Below are positions 3,696 to 20,000 of a stretch of 20,000 bases of DNA, piece after piece (position 1 is the first letter of the stretch; the number at the start of each line of letters is the position of its first letter). Location of the stretch: the IMG/VR virus record IMGVR_UViG_3300042691_032227; one strand, given 5' to 3'. This stretch comes from an uncultured virus (IMG/VR IMGVR_UViG_3300042691_032227). Lineage: Duplodnaviria > Heunggongvirae > Uroviricota > Caudoviricetes. The notes under the pieces are model-generated. The model did no database searches. It saw nothing but the letters and a program-made list of their open reading frames with translations, and was not told the DNA's origin. Position numbers and translations under genes: made by a program.

Positions 3696-4298
3696 ATGAA
3701 ACAAGTATTAATTGATGTAATGCCATTTGAGTTTAAAAAGTCCGCCTTGAATGAATCTCTCAAGGACGGAAAATTACTCGTCAGTGGCGTACTACAAAGA
3801 GCGGATGCAAAAAATCAAAACGGCAGAGTTTATCCGGAGGATGTCTTGAAGAGAGAATCTGAAAAATACATGCAGAACTTTGTAAAACAACGTCGTGCTA
3901 TGGGTGAACTTGATCATCCAGAATCTTCAGTCGTTAATTTAAAGAATGTAAGTCACAATATCGTTGATATGGGATGGGACGGTAAAGACTTAGTTGGAAC
4001 CGTTGAAATTTTACCAACACCAAGTGGTAACATTTTAAGAGATTTACTACAATCTGGTATTTTATTGGGAATCAGCAGTCGTGGTCTAGGATCTGTAAAG
4101 AAAGATATGAGAGAAGGTGCTGATGTTGTACAAGATGACTTTGATTTAATTGCCTTTGACTTTGTAAGCAATCCTAGTACACAAGGCGCTTTCATGTATC
4201 CACAAGGTAAGATCAATGAAAGTGTAGAACAAAAAATAATTATTAACCCATATAGTAATGTTGAAAGAATTATCCACAACATTCTATCAGAACTATAA
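3696..4298 (+). CDS. gp21: T4 gp21-like prohead core protease
   Basis: Motifs GVLQRADAKNQNGRVYP, AMGELDHP, NVSH, ILPTPSG, GISSRGLGSV and FDFVSNPSTQGAF. The start is reassigned from 3630 to ATG 3696 (MKQVLIDVMPF), just after the upstream stop. Confidence 0.96.
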   Translation: MKQVLIDVMPFEFKKSALNESLKDGKLLVSGVLQRADAKNQNGRVYPEDVLKRESEKYMQNFVKQRRAMGELDHPESSVVNLKNVSHNIVDMGWDGKDLVGTVEILPTPSGNILRDLLQSGILLGISSRGLGSVKKDMREGADVVQDDFDLIAFDFVSNPSTQGAFMYPQGKINESVEQKIIINPYSNVERIIHNILSEL

Positions 4299-4306
4299 TA
4301 TTTATA
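4298..4306 (+). promoter_or_regulatory. Putative late promoter ATATTTAT(A)
   Basis: The 8-mer ends 5 nt before ATG 4311, and there is no Shine-Dalgarno sequence. Confidence 0.65.
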
Positions 4307-4310
4307 AAGT

Positions 4311-7069: not shown

Positions 7070-8899
7070 ATGAGTATGGACGTAAAGAGTCTATTGACAA
7101 ACAACATGAATCCACAAGCCAAATTGATGGCCGAAACCCGTGGACTACAAAACAAATGGGAAAAGACAGGCCTTCTAGAAGGTTGCCAAGGTGTTGAAAA
7201 AGCACACATGTCTATCCTTTTGGAAAACCAAGCAAAGCAATTGCTTGACGAAGCAACCACAACTGGTACTTCTACCAGTTCTGAACAATGGGCTGGCGTA
7301 GCTCTTCCATTGGTTCGCCGTGTGTTCGCTGAAATCGCTGCGAAGGAATTCGTAAGCGTTCAACCAATGAACCTACCATCCGGTCTAATTTTCTATTTAG
7401 ACTTCAAGTATGGTACAACCGCTCCAAACCAAGACTTGCGTAACTTGAACAATGGTACCTCAAAGACCACCCGTGCAGGTAAGCAATTGAACGACAGTTT
7501 GTTCGGTGGTACAGGTAAGAAATTGGGTTCAACTGATGCAGCAGTACGTGGTCTATACGGTCAAGGTGCTTATGCATATTCTATCCGTCCAGTAAGTAGC
7601 TCTTTGATTACACTTGCTAAAAGTGCAACCGCTACTTCAATCGGTAACACAATTCAAACAGCTTCATGGAACGACGTTCAATTTGATGCTGAATTGAGTG
7701 CTTCTGTAGTTGCTAAGAAGTTGTTCAAGGTTACCTTGAATCACGGTGATAACGTAACCAGTGGTATCGGTGCTAATGGTTACATGTACAACGTTGATTT
7801 GAACGCAGTACGTTCATTCAACTTGATCTCTGGTTCAACCACTCCAACTTCTCTAAGAAGCAATGGTTTGGTACTAAATACCTACAGCAAGGCAATCAAC
7901 ACTGGTAGTTTAAATACTCCATTCTATCAAACAGTTTACATTGTTTCTGCTTCTAACAGCGCTATCGGCGGTGTAGCAAGCAATGTTAAGTTGATCTATA
8001 GTCTACAACCTACCGATAACCTACGTGGTGATTTCGAAGCTGGTAAGACTTCAGGTGAAGGTTCTGGTACACAAGGTAACGTTGCTACACAAAGCATCGA
8101 TACTGATATCAGTATCCCAGAAGTAAACTTGGTACTAAACAGCGAACCAATCGTTGCTAAGACCCGTAAGTTGAAGGCAGTCTGGACCCCAGAATTGGCT
8201 CAAGACTTGAACGCATATCACTCTATTGATGCAGAAGCAGAATTGACTGCTCTATTGAGTGAATATGTATCTATGGAAATCGATCTCGAAATCCTAGACA
8301 TGTTGAACGAATCCGTTGAAGGTCAAACAACCGAAGCTTGGTCCGCCCAAATCGGTGTTGAATTCAGCAAGGCAATCAACGCAACAACCGGTGAAGCAAT
8401 CTTCACACGTAATGCAAACAGTTCACCAAACCGTACTGCTTACGTAAAGAGCACCTGGTTCCAAACTCTTGGTAACAAGATTCAAAAGGTATCTAACACA
8501 ATCCAAAAATTGACCCTCCGTGGTGGTGCTAACTTCTTGGTCGTAAGTCCAGACGTAGCAACCATCTTGGAATCAATCCCAGGATATGTTGTAAACACTG
8601 ACGGTGATCAAGCTAAGTTCGCAATGGGCGTAAGCCGTGTTGGTAGCTTCGCAAGTCGCTTCCAAGTTTACAAGAACCCATATATGACCGATAACGTTGT
8701 ATTGGTTGGTTTCCGTGGAAACAACTTCCTAGAAACCGGTGCTGTATATGCTCCATATATCCCACTAATCCAAACTCCATTGGTCTATGATCCAGTGAAC
8801 TTCACACCACGTAGAGGTGTAATGACCCGCTACGCTAAGAAGGTAGTACGTCCAGAGTTCTACGGTAAGGTCATCATCGGTGATCTAGACACTGTATAA
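7070..8899 (+). CDS. gp23: T4 gp23-like major capsid protein (609 aa)
   Basis: Motifs KWEKTGLLEG, LPLVRRVF, VSVQPMNLPSGLIFYLDF, AKTRKLKAVWTPELAQDLNAYHSIDAEAELT, YAPYIPL and FTPRRGVMTRY. Codon use looks typical of a highly expressed gene (aac/ttc/atc). Confidence 0.98.
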   Translation: MSMDVKSLLTNNMNPQAKLMAETRGLQNKWEKTGLLEGCQGVEKAHMSILLENQAKQLLDEATTTGTSTSSEQWAGVALPLVRRVFAEIAAKEFVSVQPMNLPSGLIFYLDFKYGTTAPNQDLRNLNNGTSKTTRAGKQLNDSLFGGTGKKLGSTDAAVRGLYGQGAYAYSIRPVSSSLITLAKSATATSIGNTIQTASWNDVQFDAELSASVVAKKLFKVTLNHGDNVTSGIGANGYMYNVDLNAVRSFNLISGSTTPTSLRSNGLVLNTYSKAINTGSLNTPFYQTVYIVSASNSAIGGVASNVKLIYSLQPTDNLRGDFEAGKTSGEGSGTQGNVATQSIDTDISIPEVNLVLNSEPIVAKTRKLKAVWTPELAQDLNAYHSIDAEAELTALLSEYVSMEIDLEILDMLNESVEGQTTEAWSAQIGVEFSKAINATTGEAIFTRNANSSPNRTAYVKSTWFQTLGNKIQKVSNTIQKLTLRGGANFLVVSPDVATILESIPGYVVNTDGDQAKFAMGVSRVGSFASRFQVYKNPYMTDNVVLVGFRGNNFLETGAVYAPYIPLIQTPLVYDPVNFTPRRGVMTRYAKKVVRPEFYGKVIIGDLDTV

Positions 8900-8923: not shown

Positions 8924-8954
8924 AAACCCTCTACCGAAAGGTAGGGGGTTTTTT
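8924..8954 (+). terminator. Intrinsic terminator after the MCP
   Basis: AAACCCTCTACC-GAAA-GGTAGGGGGTTT forms a 12-bp stem with one G-U pair and a GAAA loop, followed by a T run. It abuts the stop of the convergent Mom-like gene. Confidence 0.92.
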
Positions 8955-9726
8955 ATTCAAAAAATTGATTGGTGTTTTGTACAACTATTTCTTGAACTTC
9001 TTCTTTGAATGAAGCATTTTTGGGGTAATCAAGAACTTTATGTTTTAGTGATTTGACAAGTTTCTTGTTCTCTATCTTGTTGCTAATAAATTTGATATAA
9101 CGATACTTGCCACTTTCACGTTTACGCCAAAATGTTCTACCTATACGTTCTTTTAGTTTATCTACACTATGTGTTTTCCACTTAGCATATACACTTCTAC
9201 TGTGTATCCATTTATAATTCGGGGGACCATCTAAACTAACACTATAGTTAGGCATTAGTGCCACATCGACATAATTATCGCCTTGAAAGAGAAAGCCTGT
9301 AGCTTGATAGATTGTACCTTTATGTCCAACTTCACTGTCAGCATAACTAAGAATACATTTTATGTAGGGATGTTCTATATTTAACAATCTGAAACTTTCA
9401 GCTATACAATAGCTTTCTATATTTTTACCGTAACCATCGGCAATCCACAGTCGTGTTAATTCCAACACATTGTTATTAGTAAGTAGTGGAGATATACTGG
9501 TACTAGCGTTTCTACCCACGGCATTTCCATATACTAATACACCTATTAATCTTTCGTTAAAACCACCAAAGAATGTACTTTCTATATATTCTTTATAATA
9601 AACTCCATAAGCTACAGTACATAGACTCCATTTATGTGTATAGTGATTCTTCTCAATAAGTGTTCTTGCAACATTCTTATTGATACTTTTTAAAAAAATT
9701 TGAGATGTATCACAATACTCCGACAT
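8953..9726 (-). CDS. mom: Mom-like (GNAT-fold) DNA adenine modification protein
   Basis: Motifs IEKNHYTH, LIGVLVYG, VLELTRLW, KNIESYCI and ILSYADSEVGHKGTIYQATGF match the Mu Mom family pattern. The start is reassigned to ATG 9726 (MSEYCDTS). Confidence 0.85.
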   Translation of the reverse strand: MSEYCDTSQIFLKSINKNVARTLIEKNHYTHKWSLCTVAYGVYYKEYIESTFFGGFNERLIGVLVYGNAVGRNASTSISPLLTNNNVLELTRLWIADGYGKNIESYCIAESFRLLNIEHPYIKCILSYADSEVGHKGTIYQATGFLFQGDNYVDVALMPNYSVSLDGPPNYKWIHSRSVYAKWKTHSVDKLKERIGRTFWRKRESGKYRYIKFISNKIENKKLVKSLKHKVLDYPKNASFKEEVQEIVVQNTNQFFE

Positions 9727-9732
9727 TATTTG

Positions 9733-9760
9733 ATTATAACAATACAATTCGGAGTGTCAA
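9733..9760 (-). promoter_or_regulatory. Consensus sigma70 promoter for the Mom-like gene
   Basis: The - strand reads TTGACA (9760-9755), a 16-nt spacer ending in TGt, TATAAT (9738-9733), 6 nt, then ATG. Confidence 0.85.
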
Positions 9761-9761
9761 G

Positions 9762-9977
9762 CTATAATATATAAAATAACCCCCTAGAATTATAAACTAC
9801 AATTTTTATTTTTGTTTGATTTATTTCATCTACCCCAAACCTATCAGTTATTTGAAATGGGTCTGGATGATGAACTGACTCTTCTCTTGCAATTATTTTA
9901 TTTTGTACTTTATATACATCCAAATCAGTATTTGTTATGTCTGGATGATATTGTCTGACCAAAGGCATCATTTTCAT
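9762..9977 (-). CDS. Hypothetical protein (71 aa)
   Basis: ATGA overlap with the cyclase stop (9974-9977). The ORF fills the gap up to the Mom promoter. Confidence 0.6.
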   Translation of the reverse strand: MKMMPLVRQYHPDITNTDLDVYKVQNKIIAREESVHHPDPFQITDRFGVDEINQTKIKIVVYNSRGLFYIL

Positions 9978-11755
9978 AGTTGTTTATTATTTAATGGTTC
10001 TATTTTTTTAACTCTTGTGGATGGAAACTCTTTATTACCAAAATCACTACCATATAAACTATATAGATGCATTACGACACCATGTTTAACTACTACATCT
10101 CCTAAATCTTGCACTAAAACATATTGTGGTCTATCATATTTAAGTATAACATCCGCACTTACTAATAAATGATTAGCTTCCCCAGAATCCATGACTCTTT
10201 GTGCATAATTAATTCCATCACCACTAATATTAAGGTTGCCATTAATATCTTCTAGTGGACATACATCTCCCCAGTGGATACCCATTCTCATTTGTAAGTC
10301 AGGTCTGTTTTTTACTGCTTTTGCTACCGTGATACCACAATTAATTGCATCTTCTAAATAAGTAAAAAATCCAAGTATCATTCCATCGCCGGTTGGTAGT
10401 ACAATAAGTTTTTCTAAAGCGTTTGCAGTTTTGAATTGTATTGTACCTTTAACAATTTCAGCTAAATCTTTAAAACACTTTCTTTGTTCTTCTGTTGTTT
10501 TTTTGCTATATCCAACAATATCCATAAAGAAGATATAGCCTGGTTGTATTACATCCAACTCAAGACGACTTGATTTAACTTCAGCCTCAATAACCTCGAC
10601 TTGTTTGATTATCTTTTTGGGAGGTTTTGGTGGATCTGGTTTTCTTTCTTCTACAGCTTTTATTTCTTCCGCTGGTTTGTTTTTACTTTTCAAAAAGTCT
10701 TGCCAGTTAATTGTTTTCTTTTCTTTATTTTTTACATTTTTATTTTTTTGTTCTTCTTCTTCTTGAATCTTTTTGAGACGAGCTTCTTCACGTTCTCTGC
10801 GTTCAAAATATCTACGCATTTCATCTTTAAGAACGACCGATACATCAATATATGTATCAGGCCCACTACCGCCAGTTTCTACTTTCTTTTTTCTGGTACC
10901 ACCCTTGGCTTGTAATAAGGCTTGCATTTTTACATTACCTGTTTTTATTGCCAAGTCTAATGGAGCTATTTCTCCTTTAAAATCCGCACCATTTACATTT
11001 GCGCCTAAACAAATTAGGTATTCTACCATTTCAATATCACCAGCATTAACAGCATAATGAATAGGCATCCATCCATTTTTATCGTCTCTTCCATTGATTT
11101 TACCATCAACATCATAGAATTTTTGAACACCCGCAAAATCACCCGTTTCAGCGCAAAAATGGATGCTTGATCCATAGGCAGATTTAGCTCCTGCTTTTAC
11201 TAATATTCTGACAATTTCTCCTCGGTTACCCAACGCGAGAACATCAATCGGATTGTTCTTACCTAAGAAATCTTTAGCGTTAACATCTACACCACGAACA
11301 ATTAAATACTCGACAAGATGTTTTTGTCCATAATGAACAGCGTAGTGTAAAGCAGTCCATCCTTTTGCAGCGTCCACCTCATTAAGAGTATGACCTTTGT
11401 TGAGCATTTCTTCTACAGAAACAATATCACCATTTTTTGCAGCCAAATGAAAACTGCTTCCGCTGCCATATCTCGCGCCTTTTTTCTGTAAAATTTCTAT
11501 TAAAGCAATGTGGTTTTTTTGTTCTGCAATATCTAATGCAGTATTTTTACCTGTCCAATCAGTAATATTAGGATCGGCGCCATGATTTAGTAATAAAGTT
11601 ACTATTTCTTTTTGATTTTCTTCAACAGCGACAATAAGAGGAGGATTACCTGTATCATCGTCTCGTTGGTTAACATTTACTTTATCACGTTCTATACAAT
11701 TGTAAACGTTGTCGTATAGACCTCTTCTAATAAGGGTAAAAATATTAATTGGCAT
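9974..11755 (-). CDS. Ankyrin-repeat / class III nucleotide (adenylate/guanylate-type) cyclase fusion (593 aa)
   Basis: About 9 ankyrin repeats (e.g. GWTALHYAVHYGQKHLVEYLIVRGVDVNAKD), a charged linker, then FMDIVGYS, LPTGDG, MRMGIHWG, GDGINYAQRV, LLVS and VKHG. The start is reassigned from 11815 to ATG 11755 (MPINIF). Confidence 0.92.
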   Translation of the reverse strand: MPINIFTLIRRGLYDNVYNCIERDKVNVNQRDDDTGNPPLIVAVEENQKEIVTLLLNHGADPNITDWTGKNTALDIAEQKNHIALIEILQKKGARYGSGSSFHLAAKNGDIVSVEEMLNKGHTLNEVDAAKGWTALHYAVHYGQKHLVEYLIVRGVDVNAKDFLGKNNPIDVLALGNRGEIVRILVKAGAKSAYGSSIHFCAETGDFAGVQKFYDVDGKINGRDDKNGWMPIHYAVNAGDIEMVEYLICLGANVNGADFKGEIAPLDLAIKTGNVKMQALLQAKGGTRKKKVETGGSGPDTYIDVSVVLKDEMRRYFERREREEARLKKIQEEEEQKNKNVKNKEKKTINWQDFLKSKNKPAEEIKAVEERKPDPPKPPKKIIKQVEVIEAEVKSSRLELDVIQPGYIFFMDIVGYSKKTTEEQRKCFKDLAEIVKGTIQFKTANALEKLIVLPTGDGMILGFFTYLEDAINCGITVAKAVKNRPDLQMRMGIHWGDVCPLEDINGNLNISGDGINYAQRVMDSGEANHLLVSADVILKYDRPQYVLVQDLGDVVVKHGVVMHLYSLYGSDFGNKEFPSTRVKKIEPLNNKQL

Positions 11756-11765
11756 AGTTAATAAA

Positions 11766-12143
11766 TTAGTCTTTTTTGAAACGAGACAAATCCAATTGAG
11801 GTAATGGTTTTTCAATATTCAAACCAGATAATCTTTCGTTTTGGATAACTAATTTACTACCGCCCACAACTTTACCATCAACTACATCGTATATAAAGAA
11901 TACGGTTTTGGTTAAACCAACTCTTACAATACGACCTGGTTTACCATCTATGAATACAACATCATCTTCTTTGTAATCACTGCCGATAAACATGAAAAGT
12001 GCTGCTGCAAACTTTTCAATACTCGATTTAAACATCAATGCAATCACTCCTGCTATAAACAACCAGACATATTTGCCCGTTAAATCTTGTGCGGTTGATT
12101 CTAATACCTTTTCTGATATTACATGTACTGAGTTTGTTTCCAT
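11766..12143 (-). CDS. Minimal MscS-like protein (TM segment plus middle beta domain)
   Basis: The hydrophobic stretch YVWLFIAGVIALMFKSSIEKFAAALFMFI is followed by YKEDDVVFIDGKPGRIVRVGLTKTVF...LVIQNERL. This parallels the MscS pattern PFKVGDxIxIxGxxGxVxxIGLRxT...IPN. Confidence 0.72.
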   Translation of the reverse strand: METNSVHVISEKVLESTAQDLTGKYVWLFIAGVIALMFKSSIEKFAAALFMFIGSDYKEDDVVFIDGKPGRIVRVGLTKTVFFIYDVVDGKVVGGSKLVIQNERLSGLNIEKPLPQLDLSRFKKD

Positions 12144-12220
12144 ATTTATATTGACTTTTACTACTAAATACTACCAACATCAAAACAAGTAGAAAGTCAT
12201 AACAAATATATTAATAAATA

Positions 12221-12628
12221 TCAAATGATGTATTTCAGAATAAAAAAGTTACAAAGTAGATGATAAGTGTTGTCACTAATAATATATAACCAAGTGGTAA
12301 TAAATTTGGGTCTAGCTGTAGTACAATCATTATTCCAATCATCATAATAGCCTGTAACTTTGCATTTGTCATACGATGGATATGACCAGTCTGGACCTAT
12401 ACGATTTTTGTACCACACGAAGTATTTAATAATACACCATCTATCTTGAATAAAATGTGTGAAGAATATCAAGAAAAGAGCTAATATATTATGTGTTAAT
12501 AATATAAATGGTAATGTATAAGTTAAACAATGAACTAAACAAGGAATTGTTCGTTTATTTTTATTTAGAGCCATCCAATCAGATTGAAGATAATAATCTG
12601 ACACCAAATGTGCTAGTAATTGTTCCAT
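12221..12628 (-). CDS. DUF3307-like membrane protein
   Basis: Motifs LLAHLVSDYYLQSDWMALNK, LVHCLTY, THFIQD and SDNTYH, with hydrophobic helices. Confidence 0.82.
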   Translation of the reverse strand: MEQLLAHLVSDYYLQSDWMALNKNKRTIPCLVHCLTYTLPFILLTHNILALFLIFFTHFIQDRWCIIKYFVWYKNRIGPDWSYPSYDKCKVTGYYDDWNNDCTTARPKFITTWLYIISDNTYHLLCNFFILKYII

Positions 12629-12643
12629 AACACTTATACAATA

Positions 12644-13603
12644 TTATCGTTTCCATTTTAATTCAACTAAAATATCATTAATTAGATCCTTTTCGTGACT
12701 ATCGAATTCTTTGTCAAATCTCTTAAGAACTTCTTCCAATGAATATGTTCTATCAGGCGCATCTTTTTGTTTTTCTTTTAATTCTTGTATTACGTCAACA
12801 ATTTTGGTAAGTGGCGATTTATACTCATCTACCGTATCTCTTGAAGCAAAATTGGCCATTTCAAAGGCTTTTGGTGTTAATCCTTTAATCAAACTTAAAA
12901 CCATAGAGCCAAACATATTAAATATACTAAATGCTGCTCCAGCAACTGGATTGACCATAGATAGTACTCTTAATACTAAGAATATAACTCCAAATATTAT
13001 TATGCCGGTTAATGCACTAAAGAAGAATTTTTTCATTCCCCATATTACAGCATTAAGACCAAACATACCACTCATACCATCCAAAGTTGCTTTATTTGCA
13101 TCCGCTTGTTTAGCTACTTCTTTAGCTTTTTCGTTCATGTCCCACATCTGATTATCATATTGTTCTTTTAACTCAGATGTTTCTTTTTGTAATTTATTTA
13201 TAATTTCATCCTTTTCTGCTAACATTTTCTCGCCACGTTTACGTTCTTCAACCACGGCTGAATTTAATAAGTCTACCATTTGTTTAACTTTATTAAGTTC
13301 ATCTATGTGTGGTGTACCTACTATAGAAATAACACGTTCATTCAGATCTTTAGCTGTTTTAACTTGACTTGGAGGATTTGTTACGGCACTTAGTGAATGT
13401 TGAATGCCGGCGGCTAAAGTAGCAGTTTGTATTTTTTTCTGTTTGTTATTTTTATCAAGATCGTCGATTGTGTTTTCGACCTTCTTTTCTTCTTTAGCAA
13501 GTTTTTTCTGATTATCATCGGTTGGTTTTGCTGGAGGAACCGTTGCGCAACTCAATACAAAAAACGACAACAATATTGTTATAATATAAGATAACTTCTT
13601 CAT
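12644..13603 (-). CDS. Lipoprotein with coiled coil and C-proximal TM helices (319 aa), possible unimolecular spanin
   Basis: The start is reassigned to ATG 13603, giving MKKLSYIITILLSFFVLS-C (signal peptide II/lipobox). About 170 aa of helical/coiled coil follow, then FFFSALTGIIIFGVIFLVLRVL and a second hydrophobic stretch. Confidence 0.65.
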   Translation of the reverse strand: MKKLSYIITILLSFFVLSCATVPPAKPTDDNQKKLAKEEKKVENTIDDLDKNNKQKKIQTATLAAGIQHSLSAVTNPPSQVKTAKDLNERVISIVGTPHIDELNKVKQMVDLLNSAVVEERKRGEKMLAEKDEIINKLQKETSELKEQYDNQMWDMNEKAKEVAKQADANKATLDGMSGMFGLNAVIWGMKKFFFSALTGIIIFGVIFLVLRVLSMVNPVAGAAFSIFNMFGSMVLSLIKGLTPKAFEMANFASRDTVDEYKSPLTKIVDVIQELKEKQKDAPDRTYSLEEVLKRFDKEFDSHEKDLINDILVELKWKR

Positions 13604-13617
13604 ATTTATAAATATGA
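13600..13617. promoter_or_regulatory. Palindromic bidirectional promoter/start element
   Basis: TCATATTTATAAATATGA is a perfect 18-bp palindrome. It contains both divergent start codons and has ATATTTAT on each strand. Confidence 0.75.
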
Positions 13618-15658: not shown

Positions 15659-15667
15659 ATATTTATA
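15659..15667 (+). promoter_or_regulatory. Putative late promoter ATATTTAT(A)
   Basis: The 8-mer ends 5 nt before ATG 15672. Confidence 0.65.
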
Positions 15668-15671
15668 ATTA

Positions 15672-19024: not shown

Positions 19025-19033
19025 ATATTTATA
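19025..19033 (+). promoter_or_regulatory. Putative late promoter ATATTTAT(A)
   Basis: The 8-mer ends 5 nt before ATG 19038 and lies downstream of a terminator. Confidence 0.7.
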
Positions 19034-19037
19034 ACAA

Positions 19038-20000
19038 ATGGCAAGTTGTAATCATAATACATGTCCACCAAGCGCTTGTGTATTAACAAACGCAATAAAA
19101 GACTATAAGAAAGCTAGATCCAGTGTAAATGATGCTAGTCTAAAACCATTTCTTAAAATAATAGAAGCTCTACAAGCTGAAATTAATTGTAAATCAGGTG
19201 GTAATACTTTTTCTACAGGTAAAGCATTTCCTTGTGATAATCCACTAACTACATGGACTTTTAACCACAATCTAGGTAGTAAGTTAGCTCTCATTCAAGT
19301 TTATGATGAAAATTTTAATCAATTAATACCAGAAACAATTGAATTGCTTGACGAAAATACAGCTGAAATTACATTTTCTACACCATCATGTGGATATGCA
19401 GTAGCTAACAGCACACCAACAACATTTTCAGGTACATCCGGCAGCAGTGGATCAAGTACTAGCGGAACAGCTGGTACATCAGGTACATCCGGTAGTAGCG
19501 GTACCAGTGGAGTTTCTGCTAGCAGTGGTTCAAGTGGAACAAGTGGAAGTTCCGCTACTAGTGGTAGTTCAGGTAGTAGTGGTACATCAGGTACAAGCGG
19601 AAGTAGTGGTACAAATGGAAGTTCGGGTACAACCGGATTAAGCGGTACAGGCGGAACTTCAGGTACAGCCGGTAGTAGTGGTACAAGTGGATTAAGTGGA
19701 GGAATTCCTGGATCAAGTGGTACAAGTGGTACTACCGGTGAAAGTGGTACAAACGGTAGTAACGGCACCGGTGGTAGCAGCGGTACAAATGGTAGCGCCG
19801 GTACAAGCGGTACAAGTGGTAGTAGTGGTAATAACGGCACAAGCGGAATTAGTAATAACAGTGGTAGTAGTGGTACAAGTGGAAGTAGTGGTACAAGTGG
19901 TAGTGCGGGTACTACCGGTACAAGTACCATAAGCAAAACAAGCGGTAGCAGTGGTACAAGTGGTAGTAGCGGTACAACTACAACGGATGGCACCTCACAA
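19038..20000 (+). CDS. Putative fibre/virion protein with a Gly-X-Y (GTS/GSS) repeat, 3'-truncated and absent from the ORF track
   Basis: Manual translation from ATG 19038 gives MASCNHNTCPPSAC...TTWTFNHNLGSKLALIQVYDENFNQLIPETIELLDENTAEITFSTPSCGYAV, then GTSGSSGSS..., open to the window end. Confidence 0.88.
   Translation, partial: MASCNHNTCPPSACVLTNAIKDYKKARSSVNDASLKPFLKIIEALQAEINCKSGGNTFSTGKAFPCDNPLTTWTFNHNLGSKLALIQVYDENFNQLIPETIELLDENTAEITFSTPSCGYAVANSTPTTFSGTSGSSGSSTSGTAGTSGTSGSSGTSGVSASSGSSGTSGSSATSGSSGSSGTSGTSGSSGTNGSSGTTGLSGTGGTSGTAGSSGTSGLSGGIPGSSGTSGTTGESGTNGSNGTGGSSGTNGSAGTSGTSGSSGNNGTSGISNNSGSSGTSGSSGTSGSAGTTGTSTISKTSGSSGTSGSSGTTTTDGTSQ
19431..20000 (+). repeat. Degenerate 9-bp coding tandem repeat (GGT ACA AGT / GGT AGT AGT)
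   Basis: About 60 triplets of G-[TS]-[SNTA] with a few interruptions (ASS, ATS, GGIP, NNS, TISKTS, TTD). Confidence 0.92.

Follow-up and report, generated by a model that had tools for sequence, protein, structure and literature searches.

A class III nucleotide cyclase domain fused to an ankyrin array in the DNA of a T4-like phage and of other large phages

Introduction

Class III nucleotide cyclases are built around a cyclase homology domain (CHD) that works as a head-to-tail dimer, with each active site formed from both chains. The pair of residues that specifies the base defines the substrate class of these enzymes and not their membership in the class III family, a Lys/Asp pair being the signature of adenylate cyclases and Glu/Cys-type pairs that of guanylate cyclases. 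In this work we examined a stretch of 20,000 nucleotides of viral DNA (IMG/VR record IMGVR_UViG_3300042691_032227; hereafter the window), which encodes on its minus strand, at 9974..11755, a protein of 593 amino acids (aa) that joins an ankyrin-repeat array to a CHD. The reading that we favor, with moderate confidence, is that of an accessory gene of the phage whose product is a class III nucleotide cyclase, catalytically competent and with an array of nine ankyrin repeats as its sensing or targeting part.

The soluble class III (IIIc-type) cyclases Rv1900c/LipJ (1ybt, 1ybu), Ma1120 (4wp8, 4wp9), Rv1264 (1y10, 1y11) and the Ruegeria pomeroyi protein 3mr7 have their fold in common with the phage CHD (Z 18.3-20.1, root-mean-square deviation (rmsd) 2.1-2.6 over 154-166 residues), and the metal-binding Asp pair, the Asn/Arg pair and the phosphate-binding Arg and Lys are found in both. 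However, the identity is only 16-26%, the phage CHD has Leu/Asn in place of Lys/Asp, and its subfamily adds the invariant residues Y416, S417, Q424, P454, D503, N505, Q519 and H558. The phage protein is also unlike these enzymes in having an ankyrin partner domain and in being the product of a viral gene.

Other described systems resemble the protein in concept or in part. The Pycsar cyclase PycC, in the sections of PMC11224242 that describe it, has class III-type catalytic motifs and a place in phage-bacterium conflict in common with the phage cyclase, but Pycsar is encoded by the host together with an effector, whereas the enzyme considered here is encoded by the phage and no adjacent effector that binds cyclic nucleoside monophosphates (cNMPs) was found. 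The class II cyclase toxins CyaA, EF and ExoY are likewise cyclases of an invader that stay inactive until bound to a protein of the invaded cell (cf. PMC9223806); their fold and class are unrelated to those of the phage enzyme, for which activation through the ankyrin array is proposed. Ankyrin proteins of phages (Wolbachia phage WO, Leptospira phages) are 27-30% identical to residues 14-308 of the protein, but those matches are ankyrin-only, while the protein described here adds a cyclase. The enzyme family and the repeat type are ordinary, and what is new is the virus-restricted fusion and its spread among large phages. Full-text literature searches returned no paper on a phage ankyrin-cyclase or on a phage-encoded class III cyclase.

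Results

The longest open reading frame (ORF) of the cyclase gene spans 9974-11815 on the minus strand and opens at TTG. The start is most likely the ATG at 11755 (stop codon at 9974-9976), because the upstream gene ends at 11766 and eight homologs of 590-594 aa begin at the equivalent Met (MAINIF or MASNIF). The gene lies within a minus-strand block between plus-strand structural genes. These include matches to a T4-type portal (PF07230, 6.9e-72), a prohead protease (PF03420, 2.1e-29) and a Gp23 capsid protein (PF07068, 2.9e-73) in Pfam, along with a head-tail adaptor, a gp15-like protein and a collagen-like fiber. With the Gp20 portal, the Gp21-type protease and the Gp23 capsid all found, the window is DNA of a T4-like (Gp23-type) myophage. 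The proposal of the first-pass annotation that the cyclase is phage-encoded is borne out by the portal, protease, capsid and gp15-like genes and by 84 relatives on viral contigs of IMG/VR. No GenBank phage matches the window at the DNA level. Among cultured phages, Microcystis phage Mel-JY01 (50% identity) and Flavobacterium phage immuto (49%) have the nearest capsid proteins. Nine GenBank phage records have a protein match to the ankyrin-cyclase, all to the ankyrin part only and none over the cyclase part.

Cyclase domain

The CHD comprises residues 404-587 (9995..10546, minus strand), close to the placement at about 9974-10543 made at first pass. A profile built from 26 CHDs of the subfamily matched 27 solved cyclase chains in the PDB, with 3mr7 the best at 1e-13 and Ma1120 and Rv1900c at about 5e-10. 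The isolated CHD was modeled by AlphaFold2 with a predicted local distance difference test (pLDDT) score of 93.5. In VIA comparisons this model superimposes on Rv1264, Rv1900c, Ma1120 and several guanylate cyclases with Z 19-20 and rmsd 2.3-2.5 over 156-167 aligned residues, and Foldseek matched it to class III cyclases with an E value of 8e-11 and a TM of about 0.7. A complex prediction with two copies of the CHD and the 26-row subfamily alignment scored 0.01 against a mark of 0.42, which speaks neither for nor against a dimer.

To describe the active site we used an alignment of 369 CHDs, consisting of 79 from viral group 1 (the window included), 43 from viral group 2, 98 from bacterial genome loci and 149 from cluster representatives. 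The first metal-binding Asp, D412 of MDIVGYS (residues 411-417, 10505..10525), and the second, D457 of LPTGDG (453-458, 10382..10399), are present in all 369. The transition-state residues Asn516 and Arg520 of NYAQR (516-520, 10196..10210) are kept in 366 and 369, the phosphate-binding R490 in 366, and the phosphate-binding Lys557 of VKHG (556-559, 10079..10090), which is followed by the subfamily-specific His558, in 368. All six of D412, D457, R490, N516, R520 and K557 are retained in 122 of 122 viral CHDs. The motifs quoted at first pass (MDIVGYS, TGDG, NYAQR and VKHG) are therefore all in the protein, with catalytic residues that are intact and invariant across the viral CHDs, and the phage CHD apparently has the complete two-metal catalytic and phosphate-binding set and would be catalytically competent.

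The base-selection site fits neither the adenylate nor the guanylate cyclase pattern, as had been claimed. Leu453, within LPTGDG, stands at the adenine-specifying Lys position, opposite Lys in the pairwise alignment with 3mr7, and is Leu in all 122 viral CHDs. Asn509, within NLNISG (10220..10237) and seven residues before the transition-state Asn, stands at the adenine-specifying Asp position, opposite Asp in 3mr7, and is Asn in all 122 viral CHDs. The same site had been taken as a peculiarity of the phage protein, which it is not: Leu, Ile or Val at the Lys position (241) and Asn at the Asp position (238) are the norm among the 247 non-viral CHDs.

This pair belongs to a much larger group of proteins. 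A full HMMER scan with the phage CHD returned 5109 cluster representatives at E<=1e-3, of which 533 also pass E<=1e-30. The top representatives of non-viral origin are 40-51% identical to it, and LPTGDGMAL or a near variant occurs in nearly all of the best 149 of the 5109. The hallmarks DIVGYS, LPTGDGM, DxNxxxN, GINxAQR and VKHG are all present in the window protein and are near-invariant in both the 26-row and the 369-CHD alignments. By these sequence features, the phage CHD is a member of a large Leu/Asn "LPTGDG" subfamily that has no Pfam or NCBIfam name, and no solved structure of a member was among the 27 PDB chains matched by the subfamily profile. A scan of species-representative genomes gave at least 641 matching stretches. 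By record titles, the best 79 genomic loci are nearly all from Verrucomicrobiota (Chthoniobacterales, Udaeobacter, Verrucomicrobiae) and from metagenome-assembled genomes (MAGs) of Acidobacteriota, the exceptions being single loci labeled Heliomicrobium, Armatimonadota, Nitrospirota and Dormiibacterota. An ESM Atlas look-up is consistent with this link, so that both sources agree with the first-pass suggestion of a cyclase subfamily expanded in Verrucomicrobia and Acidobacteria.

The bacterial members and the phage CHD have the hallmark motifs, the Leu/Asn pair and 40-51% of CHD positions in common, but their architectures differ. In the bacterial proteins the CHD is mostly N-terminal or follows a Ser/Thr kinase domain, whereas in the phage protein it follows the ankyrin array. 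A manual count of Pfam partner domains in 79 representatives gave tetratricopeptide repeats (TPR) in about 27, an N-terminal Ser/Thr kinase in 14, WD40/PD40 in 4, a trypsin-like peptidase in 3, TIR in 1 and ankyrin in 2. Several bacterial loci have three or four Leu/Asn cyclase genes side by side, and a 4.3-Mb Verrucomicrobiae MAG has 45 profile matches at E<=1e-20, many of them in one-strand tandem clusters (e.g., C2:1870570-1926512 and C2:2003978-2042217).

Viral distribution of the fusion

A word-index search with the cyclase part returned 159 proteins (clusters); the 120 listed are all 54-100% identical to it and all but one have ankyrin families. The automatic JGI name of these relatives is "ankyrin repeat protein/class 3 adenylate cyclase". 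In IMG/VR the 84 relatives fall on 79 loci, which form viral group 1. A second group of shorter proteins (about 480-540 aa), viral group 2, was found because two ankyrin-bearing cluster representatives were used as leads; it comprises 10 and 41 loci in two scans that partly overlap and includes Tara sequences.

A hidden Markov model made from the nine ankyrin repeats of the window was run on every CHD-bearing frame. Repeats were detected in 77 of 78 frames of group 1 and 42 of 43 of group 2 (119 of 121 viral frames), and the two viral frames that gave no match are short (298 and 226 aa). Among the cluster representatives, sampled as the best 149 of 5109 proteins, two were positive. These are the same two that led to group 2; one falls in the viral clade of the tree described below, and close relatives of both are on viral contigs. 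The bacterial sample took in the best 79 out of more than 641 genomic loci; none of its 98 CHD frames had ankyrin repeats. It had been stated that the novelty of the fusion would fail if the same fusion were common in bacterial chromosomes, and this count speaks in favor of the finding. In this sample the ankyrin-CHD fusion is confined to viral contigs.

A tree was built from the 369 CHDs after greedy thinning to 84 rows with identity cut-offs of 95% (group 1), 90% (group 2) and 65% (all others), using a quick IQ-TREE run that was unrooted and had no outgroup. All 16 viral-type rows form one clade, which has an SH-aLRT of 100 and a stem 1.3 changes per site long. The sister of this clade is a single representative with a C-terminal CHD, with a support of only 85. 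On this phylogeny the viral ankyrin-CHD fusion is one clade with one origin. For nine group-1 genes, the pairwise ratios of nonsynonymous to synonymous change (dN/dS) had their lowest median in the CHD (0.046), followed by the ankyrin array (0.067) and the linker (0.176); dS was often saturated, so these values are rough. By these estimates both domains are under strong purifying selection.

The cyclase gene occupies at least four phage genome backbones. Many loci share the portal-to-fiber gene order of the window and have the gene in the same head block. In a 174-kb record that is rated complete and has no Gp23 match, the gene stands beside a thymidylate synthase, a holin-like gene and a glycosyltransferase. 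In a 296-kb Gp23-type record the cyclase and capsid genes are more than 110 kb apart, and no window ORF but the cyclase has a match there. The fourth setting is that of the group-2 records, which include one of 170 kb with no Gp23 match. The copy in the window is nearest to that of the non-Gp23 phage (82% identical in DNA across the gene, 93% identical in protein across the CHD), while copies in phages of the same backbone have 70-72% protein identity in the best-matching segment. The greater closeness of the window copy to that of the non-Gp23 phage points to exchange of the gene between phages.

Ankyrin array and linker

The ankyrin array covers residues 1-289 (10889..11755, minus strand). 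Five Ank families of Pfam scored above their cut-offs, among them Ank_2 (1.9e-36) and Ank (4.9e-34), and the full-length AlphaFold2 model (mean pLDDT 77) has nine helix pairs between residues 5 and 283. The repeats are arranged in three triplets that are mutually identical at 26, 28 and 34 of 96 positions (27-35%; z 10-15 relative to shuffled sequence), and for most repeats the best-scoring partner is the repeat three or six places away. The Pfam matches, the modeled helix pairs and the triplet periodicity all agree with the first-pass description of about nine repeats in three triplets. Matches to NCBIfam MzaA and to a Dot/Icm ankyrin effector were far below their cut-offs and were set aside as generic ankyrin similarity. 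The place of the gene among head genes also led us to consider a head-packaged internal protein, which we rejected; the N-terminus is already the first ankyrin helix, and in other phages the gene lies outside the head modules.

The charged linker that had been described between the two domains is evident from its composition, with 19 Lys, 18 Glu, 8 Arg and 6 Asp in 115 aa (residues 296-410). It spans residues 290-403 (10547..10888, minus strand) and is the least constrained part of the protein. In the AlphaFold2 model it is of low confidence and mostly disordered except for one long helix (307-340). A match to PADLOC HEC-02A (8e-4, residues 309-444) was discounted, as it lies mainly in this low-complexity charged segment.

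Neighboring genes

In order of transcription, the minus-strand block consists of genes for a lipoprotein, a DUF3307 membrane protein, a 125-aa membrane protein and the cyclase, followed by a 71-aa ORF and a Mom-like gene. The predicted lipoprotein (12644..13603), the first gene of the block, has features read from its sequence: a signal peptide ending in ...FVLSC, a long coiled coil, two membrane helices and a short C-terminal part. It has a homolog in 68 of 79 group-1 loci, and a copy of the motif ATATTTATAA lies directly upstream. The lipoprotein block, which in locus L002 is separated from the cyclase by a holin-like gene (phrog_2359), may have to do with lysis or the envelope. The single-pass 125-aa membrane protein directly upstream of the cyclase (11766..12143) has no Pfam or PHROG match. 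It accompanies the cyclase in several phage backbones, being found in 70 of 79 group-1 loci and 25 of 47 group-2 loci, and its family comprises 1449 clusters from aquatic viral contigs, many of them 80-90% identical and one present on 432 contigs. The DUF3307 gene (12221-12628) is an insertion (12145-12651) between the 125-aa and lipoprotein genes; loci L013 and L003 align on both flanks but do not have it, while L001, which is 99.9% identical to the window, does.

The start of the 71-aa ORF (9762..9977, minus strand) overlaps the cyclase stop by 4 nt; the ORF has no family match and has a homolog in 65 of 79 group-1 loci. The Mom-like DNA-modification gene (8953-9747; PF25680, 6e-41) is preceded directly by a perfect 12/12 match to a sigma-70-type promoter with an extended -10 TG (9733-9760), and a strong hairpin terminator (8924-8951) separates it from the convergent capsid gene. 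The cyclase may have a functional link with its neighboring genes.

None of the 22 window ORFs scanned against Pfam has a cNMP-binding domain, and the neighbors of the cyclase have no recognizable nucleotide-binding domain. The cNMP-binding family PF00027 was found in none of five viral records, three of them rated complete, in a search that did not extend to the GAF and phosphodiesterase families. The isolated CHD matched no PADLOC family, PycC models included, at E<=1, a threshold at which HMMER filters can drop very weak matches. No pyrimidine-cyclase entry was among the 27 profile-matched PDB chains or the 50 VIA entries listed, which is no proof of distance. A Pycsar identity was rejected, there being neither a match to a PycC model nor a cNMP-binding effector.

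Other genes of the window have features of their own. The capsid gene (7070-8899) codes for a long protein of 609 aa in which the Gp23 model matches two stretches, the best at residues 328-599, and full-length alignment is limited to the Mel-JY01 and immuto phages and one uncultured phage record, which suggests a lineage-specific N-terminal or inserted part. The collagen-like fiber gene (19038-20000; PF01391, 1.5e-18) has many internal repeat segments that cross-match at 64-69% between related phages.

Host and expression signals

Freshwater metagenome runs of several studies contain DNA almost the same as that of the window, and the more than 120 viral contigs with an ankyrin-cyclase come from freshwater and probably also from marine samples. 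The Verrucomicrobiota and Acidobacteriota affinity of the subfamily had been offered as a hint to the host. It has little force: a long stem sets the viral clade apart, no bacterial sister of that clade is well supported, and the closest cultured capsid relatives infect Microcystis and Flavobacterium. Host labels attached to a few short binned contigs (Verrucomicrobiota, Solirubrobacterales, Candidatus Fonsibacter and Gammaproteobacteria) are mutually discordant and were rejected as probably mis-binned phage DNA. A loose Shine-Dalgarno-like motif precedes only 3 of 21 window genes, and the G+C content in 1-kb windows is about 28-43%. Bacteroidota and cyanobacteria make little use of Shine-Dalgarno sites. 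Given the scarcity of such motifs, the G+C content and the cultured capsid relatives, a host that rarely uses Shine-Dalgarno sites fits at least as well as Verrucomicrobiota.

The motif ATATTTATAA occurs in 6 copies, where 0.35 would be expected (1846-1855, 4298-4307, 13602-13615 on both strands, 15659-15668 and 19025-19034). The copies lie 0-14 nt before the starts of the 294-aa, 145-aa and 200-aa ORFs, the lipoprotein gene on the minus strand, the adaptor gene and the fiber gene. ATATTTATAA may act as a promoter of the phage or as a start signal of the leaderless type, and may hint at a Shine-Dalgarno-independent host. The T4 late-promoter consensus TATAAATA has 11 matches in the window where 3.1 would be expected; we rejected it as evidence of timing, as the copies near the cyclase cassette abut start codons. 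One metatranscriptome run contains two small identical contigs (11725-11875 and 11903-12185) that cover the 125-aa gene. They cover only the first 31 bases of the cyclase gene and were not accepted as proof of its transcription. Two further runs are probably DNA and not RNA.

Discussion

We propose that the cyclase probably serves to produce a second messenger inside the cell that the phage infects. Two CHDs would pair head to tail in the manner of class III cyclases, and activity would be set by bringing copies together, separating them or reorienting them through the linker. The ankyrin array would most likely control this pairing or orientation, or else target the enzyme, by binding a conserved partner protein that is probably the host's. 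During infection the enzyme would turn a nucleoside triphosphate into a cyclic nucleotide that would act on host receptors, given that the phage records checked hold no cNMP-binding domain, and host physiology would be reprogrammed to the advantage of the phage. The conservation of the gene, the purifying selection on both domains and its presence on more than 120 viral contigs and in at least four backbones argue for a real selective benefit.

Several points weigh against this reading. The Pfam family PF00211 matches the single sequence only marginally (22.4 bits against a cut-off of 21.9), and both canonical base-specifying residues are replaced (Leu453 and Asn509). The saturation of dS limits what the selection estimates can carry, and ankyrin-CHD fusions may occur in bacteria outside the best-matching sample. 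We regard the identity of the CHD as settled despite its marginal Pfam score, because the subfamily profile, the AlphaFold2 model and the structural matches agree. As to the product, our best guess is cAMP, or a purine cNMP made with relaxed specificity, because the nearest solved relatives are adenylate cyclases and because the mycobacterial cyclases Rv1900c (Asn/Asp at these two positions) and Rv0386 (Gln/Asn) still make cAMP. As far as the sequence goes, another product is conceivable, since the residue sets that give PycC cyclases their specificity for UTP or CTP are unrelated from clade to clade, as set out in the sections of PMC11224242 on these clades.

The same diversity among PycC clades gives some weight to a reading of an active enzyme in which a non-canonical product, such as cCMP, cUMP or another nucleotide signal in place of cAMP or cGMP, is common to all of the Leu/Asn subfamily, in bacteria and phages alike. 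The near-invariance of the Leu/Asn replacements would reflect selection for a defined and different pocket, and D503, N505, Q519 and H558, which are invariant in this subfamily only, lie on or beside active-site segments in the sequence. We nevertheless consider such a product possible but unlikely: the CHD matched no PADLOC Pycsar family, the subfamily profile reached adenylate and guanylate cyclases with no pyrimidine cyclase named in the 27 chains, cyclases with Asn/Asp or Gln/Asn at the two positions still make cAMP, and 45 matches in one genome look like general signaling and not like a rare specialized messenger. If instead the CHD were only a dimerizing or nucleotide-binding scaffold, the protein would be mainly an ankyrin binder that sequesters a host protein. 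The ankyrin array is constrained as strongly as the CHD, ankyrin-only phage proteins are known and the GenBank phage matches are all ankyrin-only, as this reading would have it; but no catalytic residue varies among the 122 viral CHDs, although these diverge down to about 42% identity, which is unexpected for a scaffold and makes this reading very improbable.

The neighboring genes bring in a further alternative, an exclusion or defense-like module in which the ankyrin array senses a competing phage or the state of the host and the cyclase signals to the 125-aa protein and the lipoprotein, which would act on the envelope. The three genes are on one strand with ATATTTATAA ahead of the first, and 68-70 of 79 group-1 loci have them together, one of the backbones concerned having nothing else in common with the window; in 25 of 47 group-2 loci a 125-aa homolog lies within a few kb of the cyclase. 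A cyclase beside a membrane protein also recalls the PycC and PycTM pair of Pycsar in the sections of PMC11224242 on that system. However, neither membrane protein has a recognizable nucleotide-binding domain, and the 125-aa family is about ten times commoner than the cyclase (1449 as against 159 clusters), so that their nearness may reflect a common phage gene. Moreover, the cyclase of the 296-kb phage has neither neighbor, and the group-2 homolog of the 125-aa protein is on either strand at a distance of 1.5-5 kb. Taken with these observations, an exclusion module appears improbable. Phages destroy or soak up host immune nucleotides. The first-pass suggestion that the enzyme jams cNMP immunity found no support, with neither a Pycsar-type match nor a cNMP-binding partner.

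The favored reading, a phage cyclase with an ankyrin sensing or targeting part, has a more far-reaching form that we hold to be rather unlikely. In this form the gene would be an old, virus-only invention of large aquatic phages, a cyclase gated by a host protein. The ankyrin array would hold the enzyme inactive until it encounters a specific protein of the host, and the Leu/Asn pocket would make a cyclic nucleotide other than cAMP or cGMP as a private messenger. If true, this chemistry would define the product of thousands of signaling proteins of Verrucomicrobiota and Acidobacteriota. For the favored reading itself, the partner of the ankyrin array would point to the host pathway that these phages target, and the product of the phage enzyme, once known, would assign a function to a very large bacterial cyclase subfamily.

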